From a virus (Duplodnaviria; Heunggongvirae; Uroviricota; Caudoviricetes), in IMG/VR virus record IMGVR_UViG_2529292997_000011, positions 1-19,442 of that record: DNA of 19,442 nt; one strand, 5' to 3'. How positions within the stretch are numbered: the first letter of the stretch is position 1; the number at the start of each line of letters is the position of its first letter. The position numbers were made by a program, and so were the translations under genes. The notes below the pieces were generated by a model. That model had not been told where the DNA came from. It was given only the letters and a program-made list of their open reading frames with translations, and did no database searches. Of the stretch, positions 4,026 to 19,442 are shown piece by piece.

Positions 4026-4032
4026 TCTCCGG

Positions 4033-4057: not shown

Positions 4058-4065
4058 ATGTTGAC

Positions 4066-5458: not shown

Positions 5459-5470
5459 ACTCGTCTCCTG

Positions 5471-5496
5471 AAAATAAAAAACCCGCCAGCGGCGGG
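5471..5496 (-). terminator. Intrinsic terminator-like hairpin immediately upstream of the major tail gene
   Basis: Minus-strand CCCGCC-GCU-GGCGGG followed by UUUUUUAUUUU. Confidence 0.5.
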
Positions 5497-5517
5497 TGGG
5501 TAAAATCATTAACGACC

Positions 5518-5862: not shown

Positions 5863-6308
5863 TTACTTAAGACCTCATCAATAGCCTGATTCATTCGCTG
5901 TATGGCAACCTGCGCCGCCAGCTCCTCTGTCGTATCGAAAGCCGGGCGAATGAATGGATGCGCGGGCATGTTTATCGTTCCCAGCTCCACAAAGCGCCAG
6001 TAAAATGCATTTCGGGGATCGCTGGCTTTCATGCTGTTATCACTGTTTCCGGTTCGCAGGTTCCGTCCGCGAATGTGGACACCCGAGATAATTTCCCCCC
6101 GACGCTTTGAACGCTGAGTGAGAACAACCACATTTTTCTTCAGTTTCCCGGTTCGCTCCGGCGCACGTTCAACAACTGCATCCCGCATAACTTCAGCACC
6201 GGCACGGGTGGCATCGCGCAGAACCTTATTGTTTTCTGCCCTGCTGAGCGTCTCCAGATCCCGTGCAATATCCGCCAGGCCGGAAAAATCAAGACTGAAA
6301 TCCATCAC
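5859..6308 (-). CDS. HK97 gp10-family phage protein (head-tail joining / tail component)
   Basis: 149-aa ORF with the AHPFIRPAFD motif that I recognise as typical of the HK97 gp10 family; overlaps neighbours by 4 nt on both sides. Confidence 0.65.
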   Translation of the reverse strand: MMDFSLDFSGLADIARDLETLSRAENNKVLRDATRAGAEVMRDAVVERAPERTGKLKKNVVVLTQRSKRRGEIISGVHIRGRNLRTGNSDNSMKASDPRNAFYWRFVELGTINMPAHPFIRPAFDTTEELAAQVAIQRMNQAIDEVLSK

Positions 6309-6643
6309 ACATTCCCCTTCAGGCTGCAGAGTATTTCAAGCCGGGTAGCGCGTGCATCCGGTATTGGTGGACCTTCTATACCCAGAATGGCCCCTTTAAA
6401 TGCACCGGTCAGCACTTTCAGACGTGAAGTCGCTGTCACATCGCGCCGGAATCTCATCCAGACTCTGACCGTAGCCTGAGCGGTTTCTGCTCCGCCTGAG
6501 ATTATCTCCCTCCCGCTGATACCCTTAACTTCTGCCCATACGGTAGCTCCCTCCGTCACCGTCTCCACCGGATGCCCTGACGGAGAGCGGGCGGTGGTGA
6601 CATTCAGAATAATTACGCGATCACGTAATCTGCCCGCCTGCAT
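6305..6643 (-). CDS. Head closure / head-tail adaptor protein
   Basis: 112-aa ORF beginning MQAGRLRDRVIIL...; size and position between the connector gene and the gp10-like gene match head-tail adaptor genes of HK97-like phages. Confidence 0.65.
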   Translation of the reverse strand: MQAGRLRDRVIILNVTTARSPSGHPVETVTEGATVWAEVKGISGREIISGGAETAQATVRVWMRFRRDVTATSRLKVLTGAFKGAILGIEGPPIPDARATRLEILCSLKGNV

Positions 6644-6651
6644 GTCTCCTC

Positions 6652-6969
6652 CTACAAAGGAATAAAACGATAAGGCTCCAGCAGAGAAGAAAAACCAAAC
6701 GGGACTGGTGCCTTGCTGACATCTGAGGAATTTTCCCGGTTTTCGTACCAGTGCCCGACCAGCAACATGAGCGCCAGCAAAACATCATCAGCTATAAGCA
6801 CCCCTTCAGGATCACCTTCCGGCACCGTCTCCTCATAAAGCTTACGGTTGATAAAATTTTCTGCCTTGCGGCAGGCAGCCCGGAAATACAGCATCAGTAA
6901 CTCATCATCAGTTGCATCATCTGTATCAATACGGCACTGCGCCCTGAGTTTTTCCACTATTGCTGCCAT
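6652..6969 (-). CDS. gp6-like head-tail connector protein
   Basis: Track ORF 6652..7149 would overlap the capsid gene. The internal ATG at 6969 (MAAIVEKLRAQ...) has AGGAG at 6-nt spacing and lies after the terminator hairpins, so it is the likely start. First gene after the capsid gene, as in HK97. Confidence 0.65.
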   Translation of the reverse strand: MAAIVEKLRAQCRIDTDDATDDELLMLYFRAACRKAENFINRKLYEETVPEGDPEGVLIADDVLLALMLLVGHWYENRENSSDVSKAPVPFGFSSLLEPYRFIPL

Positions 6970-6980
6970 CAGAAACTCCT

Positions 6981-7024
6981 GCCCGCAACACTGTGCGGGC
7001 ATAAAAAAACCGCGTCGGCGCGGT
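6981..7024 (-). terminator. Tandem hairpins downstream of the major capsid gene; the first has a U7 tail
   Basis: Minus-strand ACCGCG-CCGA-CGCGGU followed by UUUUUUUA (7002-7024), then a second hairpin GCCCGCA-cagugu-UGCGGGC (6981-7000), then the RBS of the next gene. Confidence 0.5.
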
Positions 7025-7045
7025 CTGTAACTGAACAACGAGTGG

Positions 7046-8263
7046 TTATTTGCCAGTGAGCGCCTTGATGGCTGCCACATCTTCCAGCACACAGTCAAAA
7101 CGATGGAAAGCCAGAAATGCCACCTGATCAAACTCAGCATAACGCTCAACCAGACGTTTCAGTTCCATATAAGTAACGCGGCGAATGATAAAGCGGTTGA
7201 AATCCCCCAGGAAAATGAATTTTTTTCCGGTACCAATCCCGTCAATAGCCTGATCAATAACATAAGGGATCCCCAGCACAGTAGCCGGCGTACCGCCTGC
7301 AATATCCGGCAGCCATAACGGGCGTTTCTGTCCATCCTCCATCTCTTCAATAGTCTGCAATGTGGCATCATTGAATGCCCAGCGGTATTTCGGCCCACCA
7401 CGATATGCCGGATCAATGGCATGTTTCAGGGCATTCATTTCTTTCCAGGTGAAAGCGGCAGAGGCTGCAGTCTGGATGATTCCCGTCACCGACGCTGCCA
7501 GCCCTTTTGGCTGTAACGGTGATCCCGTTCCGGTCCCCTGAACCAGATATTTCGCCTCTCCACGACCAATACGCTGGGCAATACGGTTTGCCAGATAAGA
7601 TTCAATATCCACCCCACTGTCCTGGAGCAGCTCATTGGACACACGAATTATTTTTGATGACAGCTTTTTAGCCCCCAGAATAGCGGTCCCGAACGTCACA
7701 TCCTGTTCCGTTGCGGCTGTATTTTCCGCCAGCAGTTCGCCCTCTTCAGTCGTGCCATCAGACGTTGACCAGGTGATATCCTGCCCGGTTGATGTGGTCA
7801 GAAGTTGCGCAACACTGGCAATCCCGCCATAAGCCTTCATGGTGTCAATGATTTTGTTACGCATCTGCGTGGGCACCGTATATCCGCCCTGAGAATCCGT
7901 TGTTACACTCTGAGCCCGCAGTTCACGCATCAGATTACGCTCTTCAGCATTCAGTTCTGCAAATCCGGCACGCAGAAAACGGTTAAATGCCGCAGCGCGC
8001 TTCTCTTCCACCGCCTTTTTCCCGTTCTCCGCCTCATTATTCTGGCGCTCTTCCGGCCCGGACTCATCCACATATGCCTGATCCTGACGGCGCAACTCTT
8101 CTTCACGGGCGATTTGCTCATCCAGCGCATCCAGCTCAGCTTTCGCCCTGTTCCACTCTGCCCGTTGCTCATCAGTCCATGCGTTATCACCAATTTTTTC
8201 ATGCAGTGCACGCATATCCTTTGCAATGGTGTTTCGTTTTTGCTTCATCTCATGAAGTTTCAT
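7046..8263 (-). CDS. Major capsid protein, HK97 fold, with N-terminal delta/scaffold domain
   Basis: 405-aa ORF directly after the prohead protease. N-terminal approx. 100 aa are charged and coiled-coil (EELRRQDQAYVDE...), consistent with a delta domain; the remainder has the size and character of HK97-family capsid proteins. Confidence 0.9.
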   Translation of the reverse strand: MKLHEMKQKRNTIAKDMRALHEKIGDNAWTDEQRAEWNRAKAELDALDEQIAREEELRRQDQAYVDESGPEERQNNEAENGKKAVEEKRAAAFNRFLRAGFAELNAEERNLMRELRAQSVTTDSQGGYTVPTQMRNKIIDTMKAYGGIASVAQLLTTSTGQDITWSTSDGTTEEGELLAENTAATEQDVTFGTAILGAKKLSSKIIRVSNELLQDSGVDIESYLANRIAQRIGRGEAKYLVQGTGTGSPLQPKGLAASVTGIIQTAASAAFTWKEMNALKHAIDPAYRGGPKYRWAFNDATLQTIEEMEDGQKRPLWLPDIAGGTPATVLGIPYVIDQAIDGIGTGKKFIFLGDFNRFIIRRVTYMELKRLVERYAEFDQVAFLAFHRFDCVLEDVAAIKALTGK

Positions 8264-8277
8264 CGTCAGTAGTATCC

Positions 8278-8877
8278 TTATGCATTAAGAAGGGTCAAAA
8301 GACGCTCACGCGCCATTCGTTCGTTAACAGCTTTCTTCAGCGCACCACTCGCCCGCGCTTCCTGCCAGGCTTTCATTGAGCGGACACCAGAGTCTGCGTC
8401 CTGATAGGCCGGATATGTCACCGGGCTGACGTCATACAGACGAGAAATGCGCGTGATTTCCCGGATAACAATCCCCTCGTCGTCTTCATACCAGCTCTCT
8501 CCATCACGAGCGACGCGAAACGCGAACGAGGACTGATTAATGTCACCACGCAACATTGGTGACAGCACCAGGTCACAAATCGTCGGCGTATCCGGTGCAA
8601 CAATGTCGTAACGCAAACCACGTTCATCCACTGATAATGACAACGTGCCGGCAGAACTTCGTCCGAGAATGAAATTAGGATCATGATTAAACAATCCACG
8701 TACATCATCATTCAGCACGTCGTCAAAAGCCCCCGGCTTGATGATTTCACGAAATCCCCACAGAGGTTCTGAACGACTGTTAAATACCGAGCCATACCCC
8801 AAAATATGAGTCGGGGCATTATCATATTGTTCTGCCCGCACTTCCCCGCTGTAACAGCGCGTTTCACGGTCATTCAT
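8278..8877 (-). CDS. Prohead maturation protease (HK97 family)
   Basis: ORF 8278..8916; probable start at the ATG at 8877 (MNDRETRCYSGE...), 2 nt past the portal stop. Lies between portal and capsid genes, the canonical position. Confidence 0.8.
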   Translation of the reverse strand: MNDRETRCYSGEVRAEQYDNAPTHILGYGSVFNSRSEPLWGFREIIKPGAFDDVLNDDVRGLFNHDPNFILGRSSAGTLSLSVDERGLRYDIVAPDTPTICDLVLSPMLRGDINQSSFAFRVARDGESWYEDDEGIVIREITRISRLYDVSPVTYPAYQDADSGVRSMKAWQEARASGALKKAVNERMARERLLTLLNA

Positions 8878-10096
8878 CGTTCTTTTCCTCTTTGCCTTTC
8901 GTATCTTTAAAATCATTCAACGGATTTGCTGCATTTACGCTGACCAGCATTTCATCCAGACCATCAACCGGGTTCATGTCCTCAAATGCCCTCGCTTCAT
9001 TCCGGCTCATCCAGCCATCTGTAATGGCAAAGTGATAAAACTGCGCACGCTCCTGTGGAGTCCCGCGGAGCAATCCTGTAAGGTTGAAACGAACGTAATA
9101 CCCGGCAGCCCGTTCTGTGCGGGTAAACAGGCGACGGTTAAGCTCCTGCTCCCAGTTCGCAACCCAGGGCATCATCGTGTAGCGAACAAACTGAATCGCC
9201 TGCTGTGTAATATTCGAAAATGTGGCTTTTTCCAGGTCATTAATCATGTGCGCCGGGACATTAAAAATTCCGGCAATCATCGACCGGTTCAGCTTGGTCA
9301 TATCAATGATCTGAGCATCCACCGGAGAAACTGTCAGGGCACGGTAATCCAGTTGCGCAGGCAGCAGCATGGTTTTATTTTCCTGACTGCGAAGCGCTGT
9401 CACCGCCCGCTGCCACATATTCTTGAGCCTGCTCCAACTCTGTTCGTTCAGTTCATTTTTCACAGAAATAATCCCGGCAGGACGGGCATTACCGTTAAAA
9501 AAAGCACTGGTATACTGCTGACCACTCATTCCCATACCAATGGTTTCAGCATGCTGCATGATCGGACTCAGTCCCATTTTCTGATTGTTTCCCAGCGCCC
9601 TGATATGGATCATGTCGTCCGGACTTACCGCAAATGCACCCTCTTCGTTATACACACCGTAGGTATGACGCCCTCCAGTGTTAAGTAACGTGGTTTCCCA
9701 TGGCATACAGCATTCAAGACTGGTAACCTCGCCACGACGATTACGTTTCACCCACGTATAACCATTGCCCCACCCCAGCACATGACGCTGCTTCAGTTCC
9801 CGCCACTTATAGCTGGTCTGCCAGGCATTCGGTTCATCATGAACGAGCCAGAACAACGGGTGATCGCGTGCCGGCTGAACATGCTCATTCGTTTTTCGCA
9901 TCACATGCAGGGGCATCTGAGCCACACTGGATGAAATAACATAAATACAGGCATAGACAGCAGCCAGCCTCATGGACGTTTCCGGACTGACATACACATC
10001 CCGGGCAAAAATATTATCCGTCTCAGCGGCCTCTCCGGTTACCGGAACCGAGGGATTTTCCAGAGGCTCACTGCGAAACAGAGCATCAAGAAGCAT
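8870..10096 (-). CDS. Portal protein (HK97 family)
   Basis: 408-aa ORF downstream of the terminase large subunit; size and position are canonical. AGGAGAA sits upstream of the ATG. Confidence 0.9.
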   Translation of the reverse strand: MLLDALFRSEPLENPSVPVTGEAAETDNIFARDVYVSPETSMRLAAVYACIYVISSSVAQMPLHVMRKTNEHVQPARDHPLFWLVHDEPNAWQTSYKWRELKQRHVLGWGNGYTWVKRNRRGEVTSLECCMPWETTLLNTGGRHTYGVYNEEGAFAVSPDDMIHIRALGNNQKMGLSPIMQHAETIGMGMSGQQYTSAFFNGNARPAGIISVKNELNEQSWSRLKNMWQRAVTALRSQENKTMLLPAQLDYRALTVSPVDAQIIDMTKLNRSMIAGIFNVPAHMINDLEKATFSNITQQAIQFVRYTMMPWVANWEQELNRRLFTRTERAAGYYVRFNLTGLLRGTPQERAQFYHFAITDGWMSRNEARAFEDMNPVDGLDEMLVSVNAANPLNDFKDTKGKEEKNDE

Positions 10097-10226
10097 GTTT
10101 TCTCCTCATGGACACCACCAGTGCATAAAGCAGCAACAAACAGCCAGACAGCATCAGAGACGCTGGCAGACCTGCATACAGATAAACGCCAGCAGTGAGC
10201 AAACCGAAACCGATCAGCCCGGTCAT
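10086..10226 (-). CDS. Candidate 46-aa hydrophobic peptide between terminase and portal genes
   Basis: Hand-translated minus-strand ORF, below the track's 60-aa cut-off: MTGLIGFGLLTAGVYLYAGLPASLMLSGCLLLLYALVVSMRRKHAS. Almost entirely hydrophobic with a basic tail. Weak RBS; its 3' end overlaps the portal RBS and start. Confidence 0.25.
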   Translation of the reverse strand: MTGLIGFGLLTAGVYLYAGLPASLMLSGCLLLLYALVVSMRRKHAS

Positions 10227-10243
10227 ATCAGTAATAAGCTGTT

Positions 10244-12001
10244 TCACAGAATTAACAGGTCCTCATCAGGATCAAGCGTGGACAGAAAGTCATTCACGCC
10301 CCCGCCATTTACCAGAAAGCGGCTCATGGCTGTAAAAAGCGCAACAGGGCCGTCGATTTTGGCTTCCGGCGTGGATTTATTCGGGAAGATGTTGTCGTTT
10401 TTGTCCGGTTTTACAGTAACGTTAGACATCATCCAGTTCATGACCGGATGATTGCTGTGATGGAAACGCCCGGCATAAACCAGTGATTCCGTTTCCTTCA
10501 TGGCCTCTGACAGATTGCGGACCGTCTGCGGAACCTCCACCAGCGGTATCCCTTCTTCAGCCAGTGCCAGACTGAACTGCATTGCGCTCCACGGGTCAAA
10601 TCCCAGTTCCCTGAGGTTTTCACCGCCAATCCATTCCAGTAAGTCACTTTTTATCTGAGCATGATCGATAACATCACCATCCGTCAGGATGAGCTTATCC
10701 ATCTCCGCCCACTTCCGGTAAAGTTCTGCCTGCTGCCGCGAGCATCGTTCCAGCCGTCCTTCCGGAAGCCAGAATTTAAAATCAGCATGAACATGTCCGT
10801 TATCGGTTCGCCAGAGTTTTGCCGCCGCACAGATATCAATCTTATGAGCAAGGTCGACGCCGACCCACATGGGATATGTTTTCAGCTCATGTTGTGGAGC
10901 AATGTATTCGCACTTCTCCCACTTAATCATATCCATCCAGGCAGATTCGGCAGTGACCCACACATTCATGTGTTTGGTAAAAAAATTCACCCGCGCAGAG
11001 ACCTGTTCTTTCGCTTTTTTCGCCAGGCGACGCAGATCATCCCAGCGTTTACAGATGCCCAGGCCGGGATTCGCTTTCTGCCAGACCGTTTCATCAAACG
11101 GATCATCTCCCTCATCGAGGGTGTAAATAATCGCAAAGTAGGAGTCGTCTTTTACCGCGCCCTCCACGTCGCTGTTATAGCCACGCAATACCTTGATGGC
11201 GTAATCACGCTGCTCGTAACAAATCCCTTCCTTGTTAAACCCTGCCGTGGTGATACCAAATAAAAGGGACTGCAGACGGGCACCGGTTGCCGTTTCCAGA
11301 ACGTCCCACACGTCACGAGTTTTATGTGCATGCAGCTCATCAATAATGGCGCAGTGGATGTTCAGACCATCCAGGTTGTTTGCATCCGAAGAAAGCGGTT
11401 CAAATTTTGATGCGCTCTGCTCCTGGTAAATCGCCAGCTTGTTGAAATCAAACAACCGCCCGAGTGTCGACCGGGCTTTTCTGACCATATTTTTGGCGTC
11501 TTCAAACACGATTCTGGCCTGGTCACGCGTGGTTGCGGCTGAATACACCTCAGCTCCGCCTTCACCATCTGCCCCCGTCATATACAGGCCGATACCCGAT
11601 GACAGAGTTGATTTTGCGTTTTTACGGGCGACTTCGTTGTACGCCGTCCGGAACCGGCGCACCATCACCGGACGTCCGCTGCCATCGCTGCGCATGACAA
11701 CTTCCCCGGTCTCTTCATTGACCAGCGGAATGACAAAACCAAAAATATTAATGAGGATAAATACATGCCAGTCCATCAACTCAATGGGCTGGCCTGCCAG
11801 CGCCCCTTTTACATGAGGCACAAATTTGTAGAAATTCAGGATGTGCTGCGCACGGGGTTCACTGAAATAAATCCCCCGCTCTTCGCCGTACTTCAGATCA
11901 TCAAGAAAACGCTGGCAGGCCAGGCGGACAAATTCGCCAGCAACAATTTCTCCTGCAACAACACGTTCGGCGTAGCGGATCCCGTCAGCCACTTTTGCCA
12001 T
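10244..12001 (-). CDS. Terminase large subunit
   Basis: 585-aa ORF whose ATG overlaps the stop of the small-subunit gene (ATGA). P-loop-like segment VARKNAKST near the N-terminus and an acidic nuclease-like C-terminal half, followed by the portal gene. Confidence 0.9.
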   Translation of the reverse strand: MAKVADGIRYAERVVAGEIVAGEFVRLACQRFLDDLKYGEERGIYFSEPRAQHILNFYKFVPHVKGALAGQPIELMDWHVFILINIFGFVIPLVNEETGEVVMRSDGSGRPVMVRRFRTAYNEVARKNAKSTLSSGIGLYMTGADGEGGAEVYSAATTRDQARIVFEDAKNMVRKARSTLGRLFDFNKLAIYQEQSASKFEPLSSDANNLDGLNIHCAIIDELHAHKTRDVWDVLETATGARLQSLLFGITTAGFNKEGICYEQRDYAIKVLRGYNSDVEGAVKDDSYFAIIYTLDEGDDPFDETVWQKANPGLGICKRWDDLRRLAKKAKEQVSARVNFFTKHMNVWVTAESAWMDMIKWEKCEYIAPQHELKTYPMWVGVDLAHKIDICAAAKLWRTDNGHVHADFKFWLPEGRLERCSRQQAELYRKWAEMDKLILTDGDVIDHAQIKSDLLEWIGGENLRELGFDPWSAMQFSLALAEEGIPLVEVPQTVRNLSEAMKETESLVYAGRFHHSNHPVMNWMMSNVTVKPDKNDNIFPNKSTPEAKIDGPVALFTAMSRFLVNGGGVNDFLSTLDPDEDLLIL

Positions 12002-12483
12002 CAGTCTCTCGCTTTTAAAAGCTCCGCCAGCGGATCAACATCATCCGGTCCGGCGATATTTACTTTAGCCCGGCTTGCCGGTGACATACCAAACTCTGCA
12101 AGCATTGCCCGGATCCGCTTCCAGGCATCCGCTTTCATTGCCGCCGCGGGGTGCGCCTTAATCAGTACATCACCGCTCTGCGTTTCCGTGCGGTAGGTAT
12201 ACCCCTCAACATCGAGTGTTTCGCAGTGATGCCGATATTCGGTGTAGGCTTCCACCAGCAACTCGAGCGCACGCGCATCAAGCTGAGAAATGATCCCTTC
12301 CGCATTCAGCTCTTCCGCCATTCGCCTGAACCAGTACTTCCCCTGAGCCCCTAAATGCTGCGGAATTTTAGGAAGACCTTTTTCATCCTTTTTAGCGGTT
12401 TTTTTGTGGTCTTTAACGGGGCGCTTTGAGGGGTTGCCTCGAATCAAATGCAGGCGTGGCGGGGTTTTCGGAGGTCCTGACAT
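12001..12483 (-). CDS. Terminase small subunit (P27 family-like)
   Basis: 160-aa ORF with a basic N-terminus (RGNPSKRPVKDHKKTAKK), immediately upstream of and translationally coupled to the large subunit, and downstream of an HNH gene. This is the HK97-type arrangement. Confidence 0.8.
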   Translation of the reverse strand: MSGPPKTPPRLHLIRGNPSKRPVKDHKKTAKKDEKGLPKIPQHLGAQGKYWFRRMAEELNAEGIISQLDARALELLVEAYTEYRHHCETLDVEGYTYRTETQSGDVLIKAHPAAAMKADAWKRIRAMLAEFGMSPASRAKVNIAGPDDVDPLAELLKARD

Positions 12484-12631
12484 AATCGGTCTTACCTATC
12501 AATCGTTTGTTCACATTTCCAAAAAAAAGTTTTCGAACCTGCGGCGATGTGAGGAAGGGTCAGGCGGCGGTACTGAGCAGCCAGGGCTGCAGGGATTTGA
12601 CCCACCCCTCCCCTACAGATGGGAACTGTTA
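12484..12631. other. Non-coding gap between the HNH gene and the terminase small subunit; candidate cos / packaging region
   Basis: 148-bp gap containing an A8 tract and a GC-rich segment (GGGTCAGGCGGCGGTACTGAGCAGCCAGGGCTGCAGGG). In HK97-like phages cos lies between the HNH gene and the terminase small subunit. Inference from position only. Confidence 0.3.
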
Positions 12632-12982
12632 TCAATTGATGCGTTCGCGCGCTGTTTTTGCTTTATGGCAGGGCCAGCACAGACTCTGCAGGTTACTGTC
12701 TGCATCCGAGCCACCATGAGCTTTCGGAATGATGTGGTCCACAGTTCTGGCTTCAACGGCTCTCCCATTGCGCAGGCAGTTCTGACACAGATCATTATCA
12801 CGCTTCAGTATGCGCGCACGTATGGCATCCCATTTCGAGCCATAGCCACGCTGGTGGCGACTCAGTCCGCGCTGATGCTGTACCCATCCTTCGCCACGAT
12901 GTTTATCGCAGTAACCAGAACTGTCTGTGGTTGTACCTGCACATCCACGTTTACGGCAGGCTCGTGGGATTAGTGCTGGCAT
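12632..12982 (-). CDS. HNH endonuclease (terminase-associated)
   Basis: 116-aa ORF with a cysteine pair near the N-terminus (CRKRGCAG...CDKH), the HNH core DHIIPKAHGG...N, and a C-terminal CWPCH. Confidence 0.85.
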   Translation of the reverse strand: MPALIPRACRKRGCAGTTTDSSGYCDKHRGEGWVQHQRGLSRHQRGYGSKWDAIRARILKRDNDLCQNCLRNGRAVEARTVDHIIPKAHGGSDADSNLQSLCWPCHKAKTARERIN

Positions 12983-13120
12983 GTTTCGCCCTTATATAAA
13001 TCAAAAGTGACCTGCATTGAGTATCTCCATGAAATAGATTTGCCGCTGATATGAGCCAGATCAATAGACTTCATGAGCTAACGGGTGTAGATATTACTTT
13101 TTACTTCAGAGGGTTAACTC

Positions 13121-13660
13121 ATGGATATTAAGGATAAAATCAATACCATTTTGTTATGTGACATTGCCATCCACCTAGGTATCGAAACTGATATTGATCC
13201 ACAGCTTGTAAAATATGCTGTGTCATCTGGTAATGATTGGGTTATGAAGGCCGAATATTCACATTTGGATGTTGATGAACCAAGTAAAGAAGATCGTGAT
13301 TTTGTTACTGCTGTCTTGAATATGTACCGCGGACTTTCCAATGCTTTCAGGAAACTTAGTGATGACGAGCAAAAAGAATTAGTCCGTGACCATCATCTAA
13401 AAATACATGATGGGGAAATTCAGCTCCCAGGTTTCGACGGTCATAATGAATGCGATTACTTCAGTATCATTGAGGCATATCAGAAAATTGATCGCTTCCC
13501 CGAACAGAAACAGCCCATTGCCAATACTCATTCACGTACAGAACATCTCTATAACGCAATGCTTGATGAGTTTAAGAAAATTGACGCTGTAAATCGAAGC
13601 TGGGATTTATCGAAGGAAGAACTGGCATCCATTCTTTCCACAGCTCCACGCAGTTTCTAA
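13121..13660 (+). CDS. YfbU-family (UPF0304) protein; cargo gene transcribed opposite to the late operon
   Basis: The only convincing plus-strand gene in the window. RBS AGAGGG 8 nt before the ATG. Motifs LNMYRGL, PGFDGHNECDYFSIIEAY and HSRTEHLYNAML align by eye with the corresponding segments of E. coli YfbU as I remember it. Markedly AT-rich compared with flanking phage genes. Confidence 0.7.
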   Translation: MDIKDKINTILLCDIAIHLGIETDIDPQLVKYAVSSGNDWVMKAEYSHLDVDEPSKEDRDFVTAVLNMYRGLSNAFRKLSDDEQKELVRDHHLKIHDGEIQLPGFDGHNECDYFSIIEAYQKIDRFPEQKQPIANTHSRTEHLYNAMLDEFKKIDAVNRSWDLSKEELASILSTAPRSF

Positions 13661-13665
13661 GTGCT

Positions 13666-13932
13666 TTAGGCGGGTTTCCAACCCGCCTTATTATGCTCGT
13701 ATATAGAGAAGGAAGCACCCAAATTAACCAGCGCGGATTTCTTTTCCTCAATACGGCTGTTAAGTTCAGCAACTGCATGCGGGCGTATGGCCTCAAGAAA
13801 AGCACTATATTGATAGGCAGACTGGATTGTCACACCAAGCCCTGCACCACTTTCCAGTATACCTTTCTGTCGCTGTAGCTCTTTCATCTCGTTATAGATG
13901 TAATGTGCGTTACTTAGGTTTTCTACGTTCAC
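13666..13932 (-). CDS. Hypothetical 88-aa protein (GTG start), convergent with the YfbU-like gene
   Basis: ORF-track ORF; I checked that the initiator is GTG with AGGAAG about 10 nt upstream. No family recognised. Its last codons are encoded by the terminator hairpin, so it may be a real small cargo gene or an artefact. Confidence 0.4.
   Translation of the reverse strand: MNVENLSNAHYIYNEMKELQRQKGILESGAGLGVTIQSAYQYSAFLEAIRPHAVAELNSRIEEKKSALVNLGASFSIYEHNKAGWKPA
13667..13689 (+). terminator. Hairpin terminator at the 3' end of the YfbU-like gene
   Basis: GGCGGGU-uucca-ACCCGCC followed on the plus strand by UUAUUAU. The minus-strand side lacks a U-run. Confidence 0.45.
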
Positions 13933-14087
13933 GCCCTAAGTTCTTCCTGCAGTTAGCCTGCACTGATTTGTTATGCGCCAATATGTCCCGCTTCGTCTGT
14001 TGCATTATCATAAGTAATAGCGTAGGTTGACACCTTGGCTCTCTTTCGCCACCGGCGAATCTTTAGCGGATTATCCTTGGCCGGTTT

Positions 14088-14570
14088 TTATCTGAGACAT
14101 TGCTCACGAATGTATAGCTGTGCCCCTTCCAGTTGCTTCTGCATCGTCATCAACCGTTCTCTGAGGGTGAAATAATCCCGTTCAGCGGTGTCTGCCAGTC
14201 TGGGGCTGGTTGCATTATCCACGCTGGTGGGTCCGGTGGCTTCACGCACGGCTGCGGAGCAACTGGCATTGACCCGCAGGCGCTTACGACCAGCGGCAAC
14301 ATCAGCGCGCAGAGTTTCATTTTCAGCTTTCGCATTGGCTAATTCTCTCGAGTACTTTGCATCGAGCGCAGCAACATCACGCTGACGCTGCTGCATGTCA
14401 GCGATGGTGGCGGTCAGCTGCTTCAGCTCACTGACTTTTTTATCACGCTGTTCTTTGTAGGTGATGGCGTTATCACGGTAATGATTGACCGCCCACGACA
14501 GGCAGACGATGATGCAGATAACCAGAGCATAAATAATCGCGGCGACTCTGCTCACTGATCTATTCCCCAA
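14088..14570 (-). CDS. Rz: Rz i-spanin (lambda Rz-like)
   Basis: Translation (...[38 protein letters not shown]...[35 protein letters not shown]) closely resembles lambda Rz from memory. Track start at 14570 is TTG; a GTG at 14555 overlapping the endolysin stop gives a lambda-like MSRV... N-terminus. Confidence 0.9.
14150..14335 (-). CDS. Rz1: Rz1 o-spanin lipoprotein, embedded in the +1 frame of Rz
   Basis: 61-aa ORF wholly inside Rz with lipobox LVVSAC and the proline-rich segment [30 protein letters not shown], which I recognise as lambda Rz1-like. Confidence 0.85.
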
Positions 14571-15085
14571 CAGGCTAATGCGCTTTCCTGGTCACGACGA
14601 ATAACCTGTCCATAGCAGTTATTTGAACGTATGCGGCAATCGCGCCCACCATCTTTTATCCACCAGCGAATCGCCTCGCATGCGCCCTTACGATCACCAG
14701 CATTCAGCCGCTTATAAAACGTCGATGGAAAACACTTACCGGGGCCAATGTTATAGGGACAAAATGACGCGATACCCGCTTTTTGTGGTTCGGTCAGTGG
14801 TACTTTAATATTGCGCTCCACCCATGCCAGCGCCTTATCACGCTCAATGGCGTTGACCTGGTCGCATTTTTCCTTCGACAGTTTCATACCGGGAAAAACG
14901 GGTTTTCCATCCACCATCGTGGCACCCCGACAGATGGTCCAGATGCCGGAACCATCGCGGTATGCCGTTGTGTGGTTACCTTCTTTTTCATCCAGAAACT
15001 GGTCGAGAATATCAGGCGCGGGCGCACCGACGGCAATCAGTGCCAGAACGGCAGCCGACAGGCCGTATCTGATTTTTGCGTTCAT
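14552..15085 (-). CDS. Endolysin, lysozyme-type with N-terminal signal-anchor-release (SAR) domain
   Basis: 177-aa ORF with a hydrophobic N-terminus ([16 protein letters not shown]) followed by a lysozyme-like domain. Resembles from memory the SAR endolysins of phage-21-type cassettes such as E. coli Qin RrrQ. Paired with a pinholin upstream. Confidence 0.9.
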
Positions 15086-15148
15086 GGATATTTATCAGGA
15101 TTTATCGGTTTCTGCCCACGGACAGGTTTATCTGTTCCGGTCAGTGAC

Positions 15149-15499
15149 TTAAGGTTGTGATTCCGGAGGAGTCTTCAGAGAACCAGTAATTCTTCCTGGT
15201 AGCTTTCCTTTGTAGGTTATCCACACATTCTGCGCCTCTAAAATTACGGGGCGCTTTTCCGGCGACTGCTCATCCCCTTCACATAACCCGGCAGCAACAT
15301 CCAGGAAGACCTGTCTGATGCTCCTTCTGGCTGCTGCCTCATAAAACTCCAGCGCGGCACCTTCAACACGGTCCAGCGAGATGTCCAGGTCAAAAATTTC
15401 GCCGTCAAAGCGTTTTTTGTCCCGTAACGCTAAAGTTACCGTAACTTTATTCTCAAAATTGCGGATCCCTTTCACAATCAGTTCATAGTTTTGAGTCAT
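15149..15499 (-). CDS. Lysis-cassette protein of unknown function (YdfR-like)
   Basis: 116-aa ORF between holin and endolysin, beginning MTQNYELIVKGIRNFENKVTVT.... The position matches ydfR in the Qin essQ-ydfR-rrrQ cassette; the family assignment is from memory. Confidence 0.65.
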   Translation of the reverse strand: MTQNYELIVKGIRNFENKVTVTLALRDKKRFDGEIFDLDISLDRVEGAALEFYEAAARRSIRQVFLDVAAGLCEGDEQSPEKRPVILEAQNVWITYKGKLPGRITGSLKTPPESQP

Positions 15500-15503
15500 T
15501 GAA

Positions 15504-15719
15504 TTACTCTCCCCGTGCAGCCTTACGCTTGTCTTCTCTGATTTTGAAGTACAGATTTGTCAGATAAGTCAGGAAGCCCAGAACCAGACTCCCCAGTACA
15601 CCAATCGCAGCCCACTGTGACGGACTGACCTGATCAAGCCACTGTAAAAACCAGTAGCCAGCACTGCCTGCGGAGGTGCCGTAGGCAATGCCCGTTGAAA
15701 TTTTGTCCATGGATTTCAT
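15504..15719 (-). CDS. S: Class II holin, phage 21 S-like pinholin with dual-start motif
   Basis: 71-aa [74 protein letters not shown], near-identical to S21 as I remember it. M1 and M4 form the Met-Lys-x-Met dual start. Strong RBS GGAGGTGAGG. Confidence 0.9.
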
Positions 15720-15780
15720 AGCCTCACCTCCGCAAATAACGGATGGCGTAGTTTTACACTGAGAAATGAAAGGGATTTGA

Positions 15781-15803
15781 AAAGAAAAACCCGCAAAAGC
15801 GGG
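15781..15803 (-). terminator. Intrinsic terminator downstream of the tRNA cluster and upstream of the holin
   Basis: Minus-strand CCCGC-UUUU-GCGGG followed by UUUUUCUUUUC. Confidence 0.5.
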
Positions 15804-15959
15804 CGAAACGATATATACAGTAAGGGAAGCACTCTATCCAACAAACCACCCACAGTTAATCGGAATAAAAGCAGAGTGCTTATGAATGATCGCCTGCCCG
15901 AAGGTTAGTATTTCTGCACAGCAATTTTGCAAAAAAAGCGATCATTCATAACTTAAACG

Positions 15960-16003
15960 TCTTTCAGTCACTCCGGGATTTCCCATCATCGCAGACTGAA
16001 AGA
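15960..16003. repeat. 10-bp perfect inverted repeat with 24-bp spacer just 3' of the tRNA cluster
   Basis: TCTTTCAGTC (15960-15969) and GACTGAAAGA (15994-16003) are exact reverse complements. Confidence 0.3.
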
Positions 16004-16010
16004 CTCTAAC

Positions 16011-16085
<75 letters not shown>

Positions 16086-16088
16086 ATA

Positions 16089-16164
<76 letters not shown>

Positions 16165-16166
16165 AC

Positions 16167-16243
16167 TGGACCGCCACCGGGGACTCGAACCTCGCACACT
16201 CAACTTAAAGGGTTGACGCTCTTTCCTGATGAGCTAGTGGCGG
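16167..16243 (-). tRNA. tRNA-like gene, non-canonical; anticodon UUU (Lys) if the standard register holds; possibly a pseudo-tRNA
   Basis: Reverse complement CCGCCAC-UA-GCUC-AUCAGGAAA-GAGC-G-UCAAC-CCUUUAA-GUUGA-GUGUG-CGAGG-UUCGAGU-CCCCG-GUGGCGG-U-CCA. Acceptor, D and anticodon stems pair, but position 33 is C rather than the near-invariant U, and the T stem has an A:C mismatch. Confidence 0.5.
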
Positions 16244-16244
16244 C

Positions 16245-16320
16245 TGGTGGCCCTTGCTGGATTTGAACCAGCGACCTGGCGATTATGAGTCGCTCGCTCT
16301 CACCACTGAGCTAAAGGGCC
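16245..16320 (-). tRNA. tRNA with anticodon CAU, tRNA-Ile2 (ileX-like) or elongator tRNA-Met
   Basis: Reverse complement GGCCCUU-UA-GCUC-AGUGGUGA-GAGC-G-AGCGA-CUCAUAA-UCGCC-AGGUC-GCUGG-UUCAAAU-CCAGC-AAGGGCC-A-CCA. Resembles E. coli ileX from memory but diverged. Separated from the neighbouring tRNA by 1 nt. Confidence 0.8.
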
Positions 16321-16329
16321 GGGAGCAGA

Positions 16330-16358
16330 ATAATAATGGTGCGTAATTAATTCTGCAA
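16330..16358 (-). promoter_or_regulatory. Near-consensus sigma-70 promoter driving the tRNA cluster
   Basis: Minus strand: TTGCAG (16358-16353), 17-nt spacer, TATTAT (16335-16330), about 9 nt before the 5' end of the first tRNA. Confidence 0.55.
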
Positions 16359-16369
16359 TCTCATCCGTT

Positions 16370-17419
16370 TCAAACGATTAAATCCTGAACTTCCCTGACT
16401 GTCTGCTCAAAACGTCCGGTCTCCAGTTCAACGCCAATCGCACGACGCCCGAGCGCCAGTGCAGCTTTTACCGTTGAACCTGAGCCCATAAAAAAATCTG
16501 CAACCAGGTCACCCGGACGACTGCTTGCGCTGATTATCTGCTGCAGCATTTCTGCCGGTTTTTCGCACGGATGTTTCCCGGGATAGAACTGCACCGGTTT
16601 ATGTGTCCACACATCCGTGTACGGCACCTGCGCCGTCACACCAAAATACCGCCGCAGATGCTTATATTCACTCTGCAGCTCCACATACTGCCGGTTCAGT
16701 GACGTATACGTATCCACCAGCTGGTGGTGGGGCTTTTCCAGTTCTCCCCGCTGATGTTTCTCTTCTGCCACCCGGGCAAACAGCGACTGTAATTTCAGAT
16801 AATCGCTTTCGTTCGGTAGCTGCCACTGACTGGCACTGAACCAGTGCGACACCATGTTTTTCTTTCCTGTGGCATCTGCAATCTGTTTTGCCGTTATCCC
16901 CAGGGCCGCGCGCGCATCACGAAAGTAAGAAATCAGCGGGGCCATCACATGCTGTTTCAGTGCACTGCCCTTCGCCGCATACCCGGCATCTTTCGGACGA
17001 TACGGCCCCTGATAATGTTCCGCGAACAGAATGCGCTCTGTGGCGGGGAAATACGCCCGCAGGCTTTCCTTGTTGCATCCGTTCCAGCGTCCGGACGGCT
17101 TCGCCCAGATAATATGGTTCAGCACACTGAAGCGTTCACGCATCATGATTTCGATATCAGATGCCAGGCGATGACCACAGAACAGGTAAAGACTTCCGGC
17201 AGGTTTCAGCACCCGCCAGAACTGCGCCAGACACTGGTCCAGCCACTTCAGGTAATCATCGTCGCCCTTCCACTGGTTATCCCAGCCCTCGGGCTTCACT
17301 TTAAAGTACGGCGGGTCCGTGACTATCAGGTCAACAGAATTTTCGGGTAACGACCGGATAAATTCCAGGCAGTCGGCGTTGATTAACTCACAACTGGATA
17401 TTTTTACAGTGTTAAGCAT
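16370..17419 (-). CDS. Orphan DNA methyltransferase, beta-class order (motif IV DPPY before motif I FxGxG); N6-adenine or N4-cytosine
   Basis: 349-aa ORF with VTDPPYF near the N-terminus and DFFMGSGST near the C-terminus. No adjacent restriction endonuclease gene is visible. Confidence 0.85.
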   Translation of the reverse strand: MLNTVKISSCELINADCLEFIRSLPENSVDLIVTDPPYFKVKPEGWDNQWKGDDDYLKWLDQCLAQFWRVLKPAGSLYLFCGHRLASDIEIMMRERFSVLNHIIWAKPSGRWNGCNKESLRAYFPATERILFAEHYQGPYRPKDAGYAAKGSALKQHVMAPLISYFRDARAALGITAKQIADATGKKNMVSHWFSASQWQLPNESDYLKLQSLFARVAEEKHQRGELEKPHHQLVDTYTSLNRQYVELQSEYKHLRRYFGVTAQVPYTDVWTHKPVQFYPGKHPCEKPAEMLQQIISASSRPGDLVADFFMGSGSTVKAALALGRRAIGVELETGRFEQTVREVQDLIV

Positions 17420-17451
17420 GGATCATTAAGCCTGTCTCTGATAGGCTCATT

Positions 17452-17470
17452 CTGCTTTTGCGCAAAGCAG
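17452..17470. promoter_or_regulatory. 19-bp palindrome in the methyltransferase 5' leader; candidate operator or RNA hairpin
   Basis: CTGCTTT-TGCGC-AAAGCAG: 7-bp perfect arms, about 35-50 bp upstream of the methyltransferase ATG at 17419. Confidence 0.35.
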
Positions 17471-17555
17471 ATGGGCCTGAGGTTTGCTTGTGACCCCAAC
17501 GCATGAGCAGATGGCTGGCAGGTGCCGCTAACACCCACCAGCCGCCCATTACCAC

Positions 17556-17583
17556 AAATAAAAAAGCCTTCAGGGCTGAAGGC
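17556..17583 (-). terminator. Terminator-like hairpin overlapping the stop codon of the small upstream gene
   Basis: Minus-strand GCCUUCA-gccc-UGAAGGC followed by UUUUUUAUUU; the TGA stop of the 65-aa ORF lies inside the hairpin. Confidence 0.45.
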
Positions 17584-17766
17584 GTCTGTAACAACCGAAC
17601 TGATAATCTGCCAGACCCGCCATAACAAGCTGAGTCAGTATTAACTGGCAGCGTTCACGTGAAAGGTAAGTATTCTGCGCAATCTCCCCGACGGTCGCCG
17701 GTTCGGTGACGCTTAATTCATTAAACACCACTCTGGCGGTTTCGGTCATATCCTGCTGTTTTAGCA
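17570..17766 (-). CDS. Small 65-aa protein, possible helix-turn-helix regulator
   Basis: Track ORF 17570..17848; the internal ATG at 17766 (MLKQQDMTETARVVFNELSVTEPATVGEIAQNTYLSRERCQLILTQLVMAGLADYQF...) is preceded by AAGGAAAAG and lies downstream of tR'. The HTH assignment is a guess from residue pattern. Confidence 0.45.
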
Positions 17767-17884
17767 TGTCTTTTCCTTTTCCGGTTAACGTGACACACCA
17801 ATAACTCTTGTCGAAAAAGCCAGCAAGCTGAAAGACCCGTATTCGCAACCACCAGCGCGTTTACTGTACTGACGCGATTTCAGT

Positions 17885-17910
17885 CATAAAAAACCCGCCA
17901 GGCGGCGGGG
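17885..17910 (-). terminator. tR'-like intrinsic terminator about 45-65 nt downstream of the pR' start
   Basis: Minus-strand CCCGCC-gccu-GGCGGG followed by UUUUUUAUGA. Confidence 0.55.
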
Positions 17911-17949
17911 TGTAAAAAATCTTCTAACGTCAGGCATAAAACGCCCATC

Positions 17950-17990
17950 GTTAGAGCAAATTTACCACAGATTCGGGAAAAATCAACAAC
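17950..17990 (-). promoter_or_regulatory. Late promoter pR' with lambda-like -10 and pause-inducing region (qut-like)
   Basis: Minus strand: TTGATT (17986-17981), 16-nt spacer, TAAATT (17964-17959), then TTGCTCTAACGATGGGCG. From memory this is strikingly like lambda pR' (GGTAAATTTGACTCAACGATGGG). It begins 5 nt after the Q stop codon. Confidence 0.55.
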
Positions 17991-17991
17991 A

Positions 17992-18813
17992 CTATCGCGT
18001 TACCCTCTTTAACTGCCGCTCCGCCCATGCCTCTTCAATGTCAAACCGAACCACCAACGTATCGTAAAAGCGTTTCACTGATTTTTTCCACGTATCAAGC
18101 GTGATAGCACTCGTCACTTTGCGTATGGCATTAAATGCCTCCGTTGATGGTAGTCTTTCACAGCCACGACCACCACAACGCTGGCAGTCTCTGATAACAG
18201 GCATACCACGTTTTACCGACTCTTCACGATGAATGGCAACACCACGCCCACGACAGTCTTTACAGGCAGTGGAAATCTCCCCCTTCCCTTTACATTCAGG
18301 ACAAGACACTTTCACCACCTCCCGATTTTTTTTCCATTCTTCCCAGTAAGACGGATACACACCTTTCGTACACTTTGCCCATACCGGCGGCTTACCATCC
18401 GGATACTGGACCTTGTTTGTAAAAACTACGCTTTCAATAAATTTTTCCCCATAGCAACAAGGGCACTGCTTTTTACTCGCTGCGCTGCGGGCATAATCCT
18501 CAAAAGCGTACGAAGCCATAATGCGCATCACTACCGGTTTTATTTCTGCCGGGAGTTTTCTTAACGCCGCCACGCGATCACACCGACTGAGTGCATATTC
18601 TGTCAGCAATTCTGTTGCCCGCTCTCTGTCATTCATACTAATGCCCATTTTCCCAAGGAACGCAGAAAACCCCATCTCAGCCCGATTCTGTGTCATGCCC
18701 TGCGCGGCCATCACATCAGTGATACTCAGCGCATCTTTCGACGTTGAGGCCGATGCATCAGTCAGGCCGGGGGATTTTGGGGAGTAGTATTTCGGTAAAT
18801 CTTCCAGTTTCAT
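17992..18813 (-). CDS. Q: Late-gene antiterminator Q (lambda Q family, with an internal cysteine-rich insertion)
   Basis: 273-aa ORF. N-terminus (YYSPKSPGL...TDVMAAQGM) and C-terminus (RLPSTEAFNAIRKVTSAITLDTWKKSVKRFYDTLVV...RVTR) resemble lambda Q from memory. Central zinc-finger-like CPECKGKGE...CKDCRGRG...CQRCGGRGC. Followed directly by pR'. Confidence 0.85.
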   Translation of the reverse strand: MKLEDLPKYYSPKSPGLTDASASTSKDALSITDVMAAQGMTQNRAEMGFSAFLGKMGISMNDRERATELLTEYALSRCDRVAALRKLPAEIKPVVMRIMASYAFEDYARSAASKKQCPCCYGEKFIESVVFTNKVQYPDGKPPVWAKCTKGVYPSYWEEWKKNREVVKVSCPECKGKGEISTACKDCRGRGVAIHREESVKRGMPVIRDCQRCGGRGCERLPSTEAFNAIRKVTSAITLDTWKKSVKRFYDTLVVRFDIEEAWAERQLKRVTR

Positions 18814-19190
18814 TTTTTGACCTGCCCTTCAAGCATTATGGGGTAAATCTTCACCCCCAGACGTCCACCAGATACTGGCTGAGCACGAACGATATTGATT
18901 TCATCAAACTGCTCATCGTCCATTAGCAACCCCGCATGCGTCAGCGCATCCAGCGGCGCTTTCAGAATATTGTCCAGGTCACGGCGGCGCTTATCCGGTG
19001 GTTCTGCAATAATTTTTATTGCCAACCTTCCGGACAGGCTTAATTTCAGCCGCTGCTGGCGAACAATAAGCGCCACTGCCCGGCGATAACGCTCCCCGGC
19101 TTTTGATACAAAATATGTGCTGCCACGACGACGCCAGTAAGTGTTCACCGTTGGCGGGTAAGGCAAAACAAATTCTATGCGTTCAGTCAT
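18810..19190 (-). CDS. rusA: RusA-family Holliday junction resolvase
   Basis: 126-aa ORF with LPYPPTVNTYWRRRG and DKRRRDLDNILKAPLDALTHAGLLMDDEQ; the aspartate cluster and surrounding sequence resemble E. coli RusA from memory. Overlaps the Q start by 4 nt. Confidence 0.85.
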   Translation of the reverse strand: MTERIEFVLPYPPTVNTYWRRRGSTYFVSKAGERYRRAVALIVRQQRLKLSLSGRLAIKIIAEPPDKRRRDLDNILKAPLDALTHAGLLMDDEQFDEINIVRAQPVSGGRLGVKIYPIMLEGQVKK

Positions 19191-19421
19191 TTATGCTTTC
19201 CACTTCAAAACACCCGAATTTCTCGCGTGCATTAAAAAACGAATCAGCAACAACAGCTGGCTGCCGTGTTTTTCTTCAAAATCTTTTACCCCGGCGTGTA
19301 GTTCGCTATGGCATTTACGGCACAGCGGAATAACAAACAAATCATCAGCCTTTGTTCCCATCCCTCCCAGTCCATGACCAATGATGTGATGCGGATCATC
19401 TGCCTGATTGCCACACGTCAT
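19191..19421 (-). CDS. nin-region protein, DUF1364 / YbcO-like putative Zn-binding nuclease; N-terminus may extend beyond the chosen start
   Basis: 76-aa ORF with HHIIGHGLGGMGTKADDLFVIPLCRKCHSELH; the His/Cys pattern and the position just upstream of rusA match ybcO-like genes of lambdoid nin regions. Only 21 nt of window remain upstream of the chosen start. Confidence 0.5.
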   Translation of the reverse strand: MTCGNQADDPHHIIGHGLGGMGTKADDLFVIPLCRKCHSELHAGVKDFEEKHGSQLLLLIRFLMHARNSGVLKWKA

Positions 19422-19442
19422 GCATTTCTGCGTTTTTACCCA

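Follow-up and report, generated by a model that had tools for sequence, protein, structure and literature searches.

A YfbU-fold cargo gene at the lysis-packaging junction of an HK97-like Escherichia coli prophage: anatomy of the module and a candidate role in phage defence

In this work we describe a short cargo module, and the YfbU-like gene that it carries, in IMG/VR virus record IMGVR_UViG_2529292997_000011 (Caudoviricetes). The whole of positions 1 to 19,442 of this record was analysed and is called the window below. It covers the late genes, all on the minus strand, of an HK97-like lambdoid prophage of Escherichia coli. Between the gene for an HNH endonuclease of the packaging module and Rz, the last gene of the lysis cassette, lies a plus-strand gene for a 179-amino acid (aa) protein with the YfbU fold. 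The anatomy of the module, the family assignment of its product and the status of its position as a cargo slot are jointly established with high confidence. The features at the locus are as follows, with positions numbered on the window.

12632-12982, minus strand: HNH endonuclease of the HK97-type packaging module, left flank (Pfam HNH, E 2e-16; RefSeq)
12983-13705, no strand: YfbU cargo module, 723 bp, GC 0.396, made up of upstream control region, gene and terminator (breakpoints, composition)
13050-13054, plus strand: TATGA, the window's copy of a TGTGA(G/A) element and a candidate regulator site, about 10-15 nt 5' of the -35-like hexamer
13065-13070, plus strand: -35-like hexamer TAGACT (ATG-anchored alignment)
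13088-13093, plus strand: -10-like hexamer TAGATA (AGATAT if moved by one nt), 17 nt after the -35-like hexamer, weak by consensus
13108-13113, plus strand: ribosome-binding site AGAGGG, 7 nt 5' of the ATG; AGAGGG or AGAGAG in homologous loci
13121-13660, plus strand: YfbU-like gene with ATG start, encoding a 179-aa cytoplasmic, all-helical two-domain protein (open reading frame (ORF), Pfam, fold)
13668-13688, no strand: terminator hairpin of the YfbU-like gene, with a GC-rich 9-bp stem AGGCGGGTT/AACCCGCCT and loop TCC, followed on the plus strand by TTATTATG
13666-13932, minus strand: 88-aa late-operon gene of family PHROG 5415 (E 2e-38, residues 1-76 of 76), outside the cargo
13933-14087, no strand: spacer between Rz and the 88-aa gene (blastn breakpoints)
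14088-14555, minus strand: Rz i-spanin, last gene of the lysis cassette, right flank (Pfam Phage_lysis, E 2e-49; RefSeq 'lysis protein')

The boundaries of the module are sharp. In all relatives that do not carry the YfbU-like gene, DNA similarity (blastn) ends at exactly 12982/12983, and in Citrobacter phage Chris1 and the E. coli CT02 prophage, which have a homologue of the small ORF only, similarity begins at 13706. The cargo proper is therefore 12983-13705. Further to the right, 13948-14087 is common to the window and a prophage with a GNAT gene in the slot. The coding sequence has a GC content of 0.393, 3.9 standard deviations under the window mean (0.39 vs 0.51 for the whole window), and its GC at third codon positions is 0.344, compared with 0.47-0.56 for the six flanking genes (three to the left and three to the right). 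The 540-bp stretch with the lowest GC in all 19.4 kb begins at 12991 (GC 0.383). An initial annotation of this DNA, made by a model from the sequence, had drawn a single AT-rich island of 1.1 kb (12983-14087). That description fits 12983-13705, to which the strong AT-richness is limited, and fails for 13706-14087, where GC is 0.45-0.48. There are two modules here instead: the 88-aa gene is found elsewhere without a YfbU gene, and is missing from the seven other YfbU-subfamily loci tested, as detailed below.

The 88-aa ORF, which the initial annotation had left as unrecognised, belongs to a widespread prophage family. PHROG 5415 comprises 276 clusters, mostly of 76 aa, in prophages of Citrobacter, Salmonella, Klebsiella and E. 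coli, and in the two other temperate phages that we examined the 76-aa-family gene lies just 3' of the lysis genes, ahead of terminase and in the direction of the late operon. In the alignment the family ends at ...LGxSF(S/T), normally residue 76. Residues 77-88 of the window's protein (IYEHNKAGWKPA; 13669-13704) are read from the YfbU terminator hairpin, and the stop reaches 13666. Since the family ends at residue 76 and the tail lies in the hairpin, the 12 extra residues are a junction artefact; the inserted cargo took the place of the native stop codon and left this gene with a chimeric C-terminus. An AlphaFold2 model of the protein is a helical hairpin (predicted local distance difference test score, pLDDT, of 78.5) whose 12-aa tail forms a weak beta-hairpin (pLDDT about 64), and a Foldseek search with this model returned a generic two-helix hairpin and no significant match.

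Could the YfbU-like gene nevertheless form a two-gene unit with the 88-aa ORF that converges on it, such as a toxin-antitoxin pair or a sensor with its effector? Their stop codons are 5 bp apart, and the terminator hairpin, which falls within the last codons of the 88-aa ORF, is common to both. However, this overlap is accounted for by the insertion junction, the 76-aa family is wider than the YfbU subfamily (276 clusters vs 36) and follows the lysis genes in phages without YfbU, and the 5-6 kb around each of seven further genes of the YfbU subfamily (six prophage, one plasmid) encode no homologue of the 88-aa protein. With none of these seven loci holding both, the two genes are not a functional pair, nor do they match a type II toxin-antitoxin pair, as their adjacency is not conserved across homologues. 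The co-occurrence data effectively refute the pair, and we consider such a unit very improbable.

What, then, is the 179-aa protein? The initial annotation proposed a member of the YfbU family, and this is borne out by the Pfam hidden Markov model and confirmed by the fold. The match to Pfam YfbU (PF03887) scores 44.1 bits against a gathering cut-off of 25 (E 3e-11, residues 47-172), and a precomputed PF03887 match is present in 24 of the 29 sequences of our subfamily alignment. With a profile of these 29 members, the YfbU crystal structures 1WPB and 4LR3 are both recovered at E 4e-4, and the GFD...E..Y motif falls into register. Structural comparison with PDB entry 1WPB covers both domains of the all-helical YfbU fold, with 146 aligned residues at about 14% identity. 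Given a Pfam score above threshold and a subfamily profile that reaches the crystal structures, this is a genuine YfbU-fold protein. RefSeq names the gene 'YfbU family protein' and the 88-aa ORF 'hypothetical protein', and the PHROG assignment of the YfbU-like protein is family 6084 ('unknown function'). A fold search of BFVD gave one unnamed viral protein at E 1.3e-3, which brings no functional information.

The protein is not, however, an orthologue of chromosomal YfbU. It scores 33.8 bits on the NCBIfam equivalog model NF003936, for which the cut-off is 90, 1WPB is not among the hits of a single-sequence phmmer search of PDB, and identity in the structural alignment is low, as given above. 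The protein represents a divergent paralogous subfamily and not the housekeeping orthologue. The two share the fold of both domains, and the GFD-x3-E-x2-Y and TH motifs in the C-terminal domain (PDB 1WPB, 4LR3). Residues GFD (104-106), E110, Y113 and H137 are invariant. That said, chromosomal YfbU (UPF0304) is a 164-aa product of a conserved core gene, whereas the window's protein has 179 aa and comes from an AT-rich, prophage-borne and horizontally mobile gene. The subfamily is narrow: a word-index search gave 36 proteins at E <=1e-3, the full-length ones at least 50% identical, and an exhaustive search of 1.84 billion representatives gave 4 at E <=1e-30 and 495 at E <=1e-3. The 29 aligned members have 50-98% identity to the window's protein, and all but three of them are 179 or 180 aa long; pairs with unsaturated synonymous divergence have ratios of non-synonymous to synonymous substitution rates (dN/dS) of 0.07-0.13, indicating strong purifying selection. 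The sole phmmer match in PDB, a weak and repeated likeness of the N-terminal helices (residues 14-63; window 13121-13300) to an engineered stathmin-like repeat protein, PDB 4f61 (E 0.015 with the single sequence, 1e-7 with the profile), was rejected as a compositional or coiled-coil artefact.

The position of the gene is as telling as its product. Among E. coli phages and prophages whose HNH and Rz flanks are 91-98% identical to those of the window, five or more alternative contents occupy the slot.

YfbU-like gene, plus strand: the window
Empty: phi467 (42 bp) and H94, with near-identical flanks
Bor or Iss, plus strand: Bor in vB_EcoS-733R4, at the place and on the strand of the YfbU-like gene
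GNAT acetyltransferase, plus strand: a relative prophage
Two small ORFs, minus strand: relatives

This is a variable cargo slot, as the initial annotation had suspected. Its comparison of the gene with lambda bor, in slot and orientation, is literally correct, since relatives hold Bor or Iss between the same flanks. The YfbU-like gene has the marks of a bor-type moron: it lies at the lysis/packaging position, antisense, with deviant GC, and is present in some and absent from other near-identical phages. Like lambda bor and prophage iss, it is a small, putatively autonomous cassette after Rz and before cos and the packaging genes, on the strand opposite to late transcription. Unlike the YfbU-like protein, Bor and Iss are outer-membrane lipoproteins for serum resistance; the window's protein has no signal peptide or lipobox, is predicted to be soluble and helical, and has no sequence similarity to them. 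A role as a Bor-like lipoprotein or in surface exclusion was accordingly rejected, the conserved N-terminal 'ILLC' being helix 1 of the YfbU fold and not a lipobox after a signal peptide.

For the diverged homologues, we examined the context of the window and of nine further members with 55-82% identity (P0004, P0005, P0007, P0010, P0011, P0016, P0017, P0023 and P0028). In all ten the gene has the lysis cassette on one side and the gene for the small terminase on the other, and runs on the strand opposite to both, with the reservation that the P0017 contig stops short of the lysis genes and shows the terminase side alone. The packaging modules of these members are of four kinds (Terminase_4+HNH, Terminase_2/Terminase_6, GpA/DUF1441 and Nu1), and their lysis modules vary too. 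The gene is more AT-rich than its flanks in 8/8 loci measured (GC 0.28-0.44 vs 0.42-0.56). The question of whether the same gene is found in all relatives thus has a divided answer: close relatives do without it, as the cargo view has it, and diverged homologues are always in this position, on unrelated backbones. The two members at 49-53% identity, both from Kosakonia, have another setting, either an F-like conjugative plasmid or a comparable neighbourhood with a TraI relaxase gene next to it.

This mixture bears on whether the gene serves the resident phage itself, in the lysis-lysogeny decision, in induction, or in packaging at the cos/HNH/terminase region. The strictly kept position beside the packaging module and the strong purifying selection are what one would look for in such a lifecycle gene. 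Against this, relatives with 91-98% identical flanks have no such gene or have other cargo, which shows that phages of this type can do without it; at least some of these relatives (phi467, vB_EcoS-733R4) were deposited as phage isolates. Furthermore, it is compositionally foreign and antisense to all lytic transcription, and its nearest homologues under 55% identity are on conjugative plasmids, not phages. A role in the lifecycle of the resident phage is, on this evidence, improbable.

Can the cassette be expressed on its own? The initial annotation gave the gene its own ribosome-binding site, a possible promoter and its own terminator. The first is clear, AGAGGG lying 7 nt ahead of the ATG. 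A strict consensus scan for sigma-70 promoters and terminators called no plus-strand promoter, and missed the hairpin too. In place of such a scan, ten prophage loci were aligned on the ATG. In 8/10 of them TRGACW is found at -53 to -57 from the ATG, in surrounding and spacer sequence that has diverged; the background frequency of TRGACW in the window is 5e-4 per nt. All eight have an exact 17-nt spacer to a TA-rich hexamer, with the ribosome-binding site about 15 nt beyond. The proposal of a promoter within 12983-13120 therefore finds support in a conserved promoter-like architecture and none in the strict scan. At the place equivalent to the window's TATGA, seven of these eight loci have TGTGA, as TGTGA(G/A) (L021, L023, L024, L008, L027, L029 and L030). 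In its sequence and its class II position this element is like a CRP half-site, in a 16-bp site that would be centred near 13057.5, and we offer the resemblance as a lead only. The second half of the CRP-like site is poorly conserved; catabolite-regulated expression is hinted at.

The terminator hairpin of the YfbU-like gene is conserved in kind. Folding of its 51-nt context (13655-13705) gives -16.2 kcal/mol for the plus strand and -15.5 kcal/mol for the minus strand, and a hairpin follows soon after the stop codon in 7/8 aligned homologous loci (six of them prophage) with differing stem sequences. Read on the minus strand, the hairpin has no U-tract after the stem. We conclude that, as far as its sequence indicates, the cassette is transcriptionally autonomous, with a putative promoter that is weak and possibly regulated, and that the gene is probably expressed in the lysogen. 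In the annotated twin phage ON470583, over the stretch from the tail genes to the holin, it is the one gene on the plus strand, and its orientation is that of the cI-like repressor gene. A good match to the sigma-70 consensus on the minus strand (GTGACA-18-TATAGT, 10/12, 13833-13804) lies inside the 88-aa gene and is directed antisense at the YfbU-like gene; such matches are not above the shuffled expectation in this region and this one may be chance.

The remaining late genes of the window, from Q towards the tail, are as follows.

17992-18813, minus strand: Q antiterminator, late region
16370-17419, minus strand: orphan N6/N4 DNA methyltransferase, 349 aa, between Q and holin
16011-16320, minus strand: four tRNA genes (Gly-TCC, Thr-TGT, Lys-TTT, Met-CAT), between Q and holin
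15504-15719, minus strand: holin, lysis cassette
15149-15499, minus strand: YdfR/DUF1327 gene, inside the lysis cassette between holin and lysozyme
Between the YdfR/DUF1327 gene and Rz, minus strand: lysozyme, lysis cassette
14150-14335, minus strand: Rz1, embedded in Rz (ORF list; in relative L018, RefSeq places an Rz1 lipoprotein at the corresponding position)
12001-12483, minus strand: TerS, the small terminase, downstream of HNH
Beyond the small terminase, minus strand: large terminase, portal, protease, capsid and tail genes of the late operon

The YdfR/DUF1327 gene is kept in the lysis cassette of several relatives. The stretch from Q to the holin, with its tRNA genes and methylase, is a further cargo region of the late operon; in CP033884 it has two tRNAs and no methylase.

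The antisense placement described by the initial annotation is seen both in the window and in ON470583, the YfbU-like gene being on the plus and the late genes on the minus strand. In lambdoid phages, as established for lambda, a single Q-dependent late promoter drives the genes that follow the lysis cassette. If this holds here, late transcription would have to cross the YfbU-like gene antisense, since there is one such promoter and no minus-strand U-tract after the hairpin.

The locus is common in its host. Positions 12600-14600 of the window are 100% identical to phage vB_EcoS-689R5, and the 1105-bp interval 12983-14087 is contained in 224 complete E. coli chromosomes (coverage at least 80%). 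The YfbU-like allele is found in 225 of 5426 complete E. coli genomes, every copy chromosomal and at least 95% identical, so about 4% of complete E. coli genomes have the prophage-borne gene, ST131 and avian pathogenic strains among them. A scan of 12400-14700 with Rfam (E <=1) gave no match.

The neighbours of the diverged homologues give a hint of function. No partner gene is conserved; neighbours vary in all loci examined. In two prophages the same slot also holds genes of a defence type: locus L024 has a TIR protein (1397-2275, plus strand) that is ThsB-like and matches PADLOC PDC-S66 at 1e-113, and L008 has a Ser/Thr kinase and PP2C phosphatase (6990-8488, minus strand) with matches to PD-T4-6/Stk2/mad6 at 1e-30 to 1e-34. 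Distant YfbU genes on plasmids adjoin an Abi_2 protein or a RES-Xre toxin-antitoxin pair.

Several side observations belong with these loci. Between Q and the holin, L008 has HicAB and L024 has ParDE, and the late region of these two prophages looks like a multi-slot carrier of defence and toxin-antitoxin genes. YfbU-family genes are frequent on plasmids: one is present on an Acinetobacter lwoffii plasmid (L016, 2123-2620), small Acinetobacter plasmids have one beside an Abi_2 gene, and the YfbU-family protein of Enterococcus faecium Aus0085 plasmid p3 (L025, 3998-4516) matches 353 plasmid records, 270 of them Enterococcus. A 170-aa gene beside distant YfbU genes on Enterococcus and Raoultella plasmids was considered as a common partner and rejected, the two flanking proteins not being homologous. 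A second, independent phage lineage is represented by the P2-like Yersinia phage vB_YenM_324 (L006, Peduoviridae), where a gene for a 192-aa YfbU-family protein (3456-4034; Pfam 83 bits, 31% identical) lies after the baseplate and tail-fibre genes near the genome end. Finally, three YfbU-family proteins of about 230 aa (P0054, P0074 and P0122) have an N-terminal extension of about 50 aa with a ribbon-helix-helix (CopG) match of 18.7-22.4 bits, against a threshold of 20.5. As some members are fused to this domain, the YfbU domain may act as a sensor or interaction module, with the sensing or partner-binding task in a regulator that binds DNA.

Anti-phage defence was among the functions suggested by the initial annotation. 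An experimental precedent for it, and the closest characterised analogue of the window's gene, is Kamadhenu, a single-gene system of 180 aa with a YfbU fold, from the Lactococcus plasmid pUCCL624_130 (Grafakou et al., NAR 2024, PMC11381338). It is reported to confer full resistance to all tested skunaviruses and ceduoviruses (PNAS 2025, PMC12184496), and acts after DNA injection in a manner like abortive infection (PMC11381338). In every escape mutant, a Sak-like single-strand annealing protein was altered at G22 (PMC12184496). The window's gene resembles Kamadhenu in being a single gene on a mobile element with no obligatory partner, in length (179 vs 180 aa), in Pfam family (PF03887) and in having no recognisable catalytic domain. 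The two differ in that Kamadhenu is from a Gram-positive plasmid and has a demonstrated Abi-like phenotype, whereas the gene described here is from an enterobacterial prophage. A PADLOC scan of the 179-aa and 88-aa proteins gave no match; Kamadhenu is absent from PADLOC and DefenseFinder (PMC13335696), which makes this null result uninformative and not negative. No Lactococcus homologue was found by tblastn of the plasmid collection with the 179-aa protein (E <=10) or the Enterococcus faecium YfbU, nor by a protein search seeded with the Enterococcus protein.

By analogy with Kamadhenu and from the neighbourhood of its homologues, the YfbU-like protein may be a single-protein, cytoplasmic anti-phage factor of the abortive-infection type, expressed in the lysogen. 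We put the probability of this reading at roughly 45%. The part reported for E. coli yfbU in death after DNA damage (PMC2646832) and the ribbon-helix-helix fusions are further hints in this direction. The feature itself is a single-gene moron cassette (12983-13705) set into the lysis/packaging junction of the prophage, its gene co-directional with that for the repressor and opposed to every lytic gene. In the proposed mechanism the gene would be transcribed in the lysogen, and the 179-aa protein alone would act as an abortive defence against superinfecting phages. The trigger would be a recombination or replication product or intermediate of the invader, for example a single-strand annealing protein; that phage recombination machinery is the trigger is speculative, and on the unlikely side. 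When the resident prophage is induced, Q-antiterminated late transcription would cross the gene antisense on its way to the HNH, terminase and structural genes, and would damp new synthesis of the YfbU-like protein.

A number of points weigh against this defence reading. The analogy with Kamadhenu is confined to fold, size, single-gene architecture and mobility. The YfbU family is large (the 495 representatives given above), and includes a conserved chromosomal orphan gene. The slot also houses cargo that is not for defence, namely the Bor and Iss lipoproteins and the GNAT gene. The promoter is weak by consensus, and a gene with 39% GC in E. coli is a likely target of H-NS, which may keep expression low. 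Self-immunity is the weakest part of the model, because antisense late transcription would come after the early recombination functions that the sensor would detect, too late to protect the resident phage.

The fixed backbone position with interchangeable cargo, known defence genes included, is shared with the defence hotspots of P2 prophages and P4 satellites (Rousset et al. 2022, PMC9122126), which differ in phage group and locus, this one being lambdoid/HK97-like. In the library searched, and with no systematic survey of the locus, no paper was found that presents the lambdoid lysis-terminase junction as a defence hotspot.

Alternatively, the protein could be a lysogenic-conversion factor aimed at the host, one that modulates or mimics chromosomal YfbU and so alters survival after DNA damage or stress. 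It might keep the cell alive for the development of an SOS-induced prophage, or raise the fitness of the lysogen in the host animal as Bor and Iss do. Chromosomal YfbU forms large oligomers and has been reported as a 'death gene' after DNA damage. An E. coli yfbU deletion mutant outlives the wild type under DNA damage, surviving damage that is lethal to the latter, and yfbU is needed for damage-triggered death (PMC2646832). The canonical yfbU is present in every E. coli, so lysogens have two YfbU-fold proteins, whose fold match spans both domains. The ribbon-helix-helix fusions of some family members suggest a regulatory or sensor role, and relatives keep the host-interaction morons Bor and Iss in the slot. 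However, the divergence between the two proteins, with an equivalog score far from the cut-off, is such that hetero-oligomerisation with host YfbU is not to be expected by default. In addition, the slot neighbours in homologous prophages are of a defence type and not stress genes, and among YfbU-fold proteins from mobile elements, the only one whose phenotype is known acts against phages (PMC11381338). We regard a host-directed role as possible and yet unlikely, and return to the defence reading.

Already known were the family name of the gene, the moron in the bor slot as a kind, and a YfbU-fold defence protein from Lactococcus. New here are the boundaries of the module, the chimeric end of the neighbour gene, and the strictness with which unrelated backbones keep the slot, the orientation and the promoter architecture. 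As a candidate for defence the YfbU-like gene is well defined and cheap to test.

The 1WPB structure was released in 2004, and the function of the YfbU fold has been a question ever since. Should the window's gene prove to serve in defence, Kamadhenu would have in it a first counterpart that is Gram-negative and prophage-borne, and the gene would be a genetically tractable entry into the function of this fold, in E. coli with the genetics of lambda and HK97. A wider proposal is that YfbU-fold proteins, whether from prophages, from Kamadhenu, Enterococcus and Acinetobacter plasmids or from the chromosome, are widespread stand-alone immune sensors that turn phage recombination proteins or single-stranded DNA into growth arrest, and that the prophage clade is held at the lysis-terminase junction for an antisense, Q-dependent switch-off. 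We think this doubtful. If true, the long-orphan UPF0304 family would gain a function, and placement at the junction would be a form of position-encoded self-immunity. If the gene is not for defence, it would be a clean and selectable example of a moron with a host-directed role still to be named. In either case, the fact that unrelated lambdoid backbones keep both the slot and the antisense orientation so strictly bears on how prophages escape their own abortive systems, and the lysis-terminase junction is a place to mine for more cargo.

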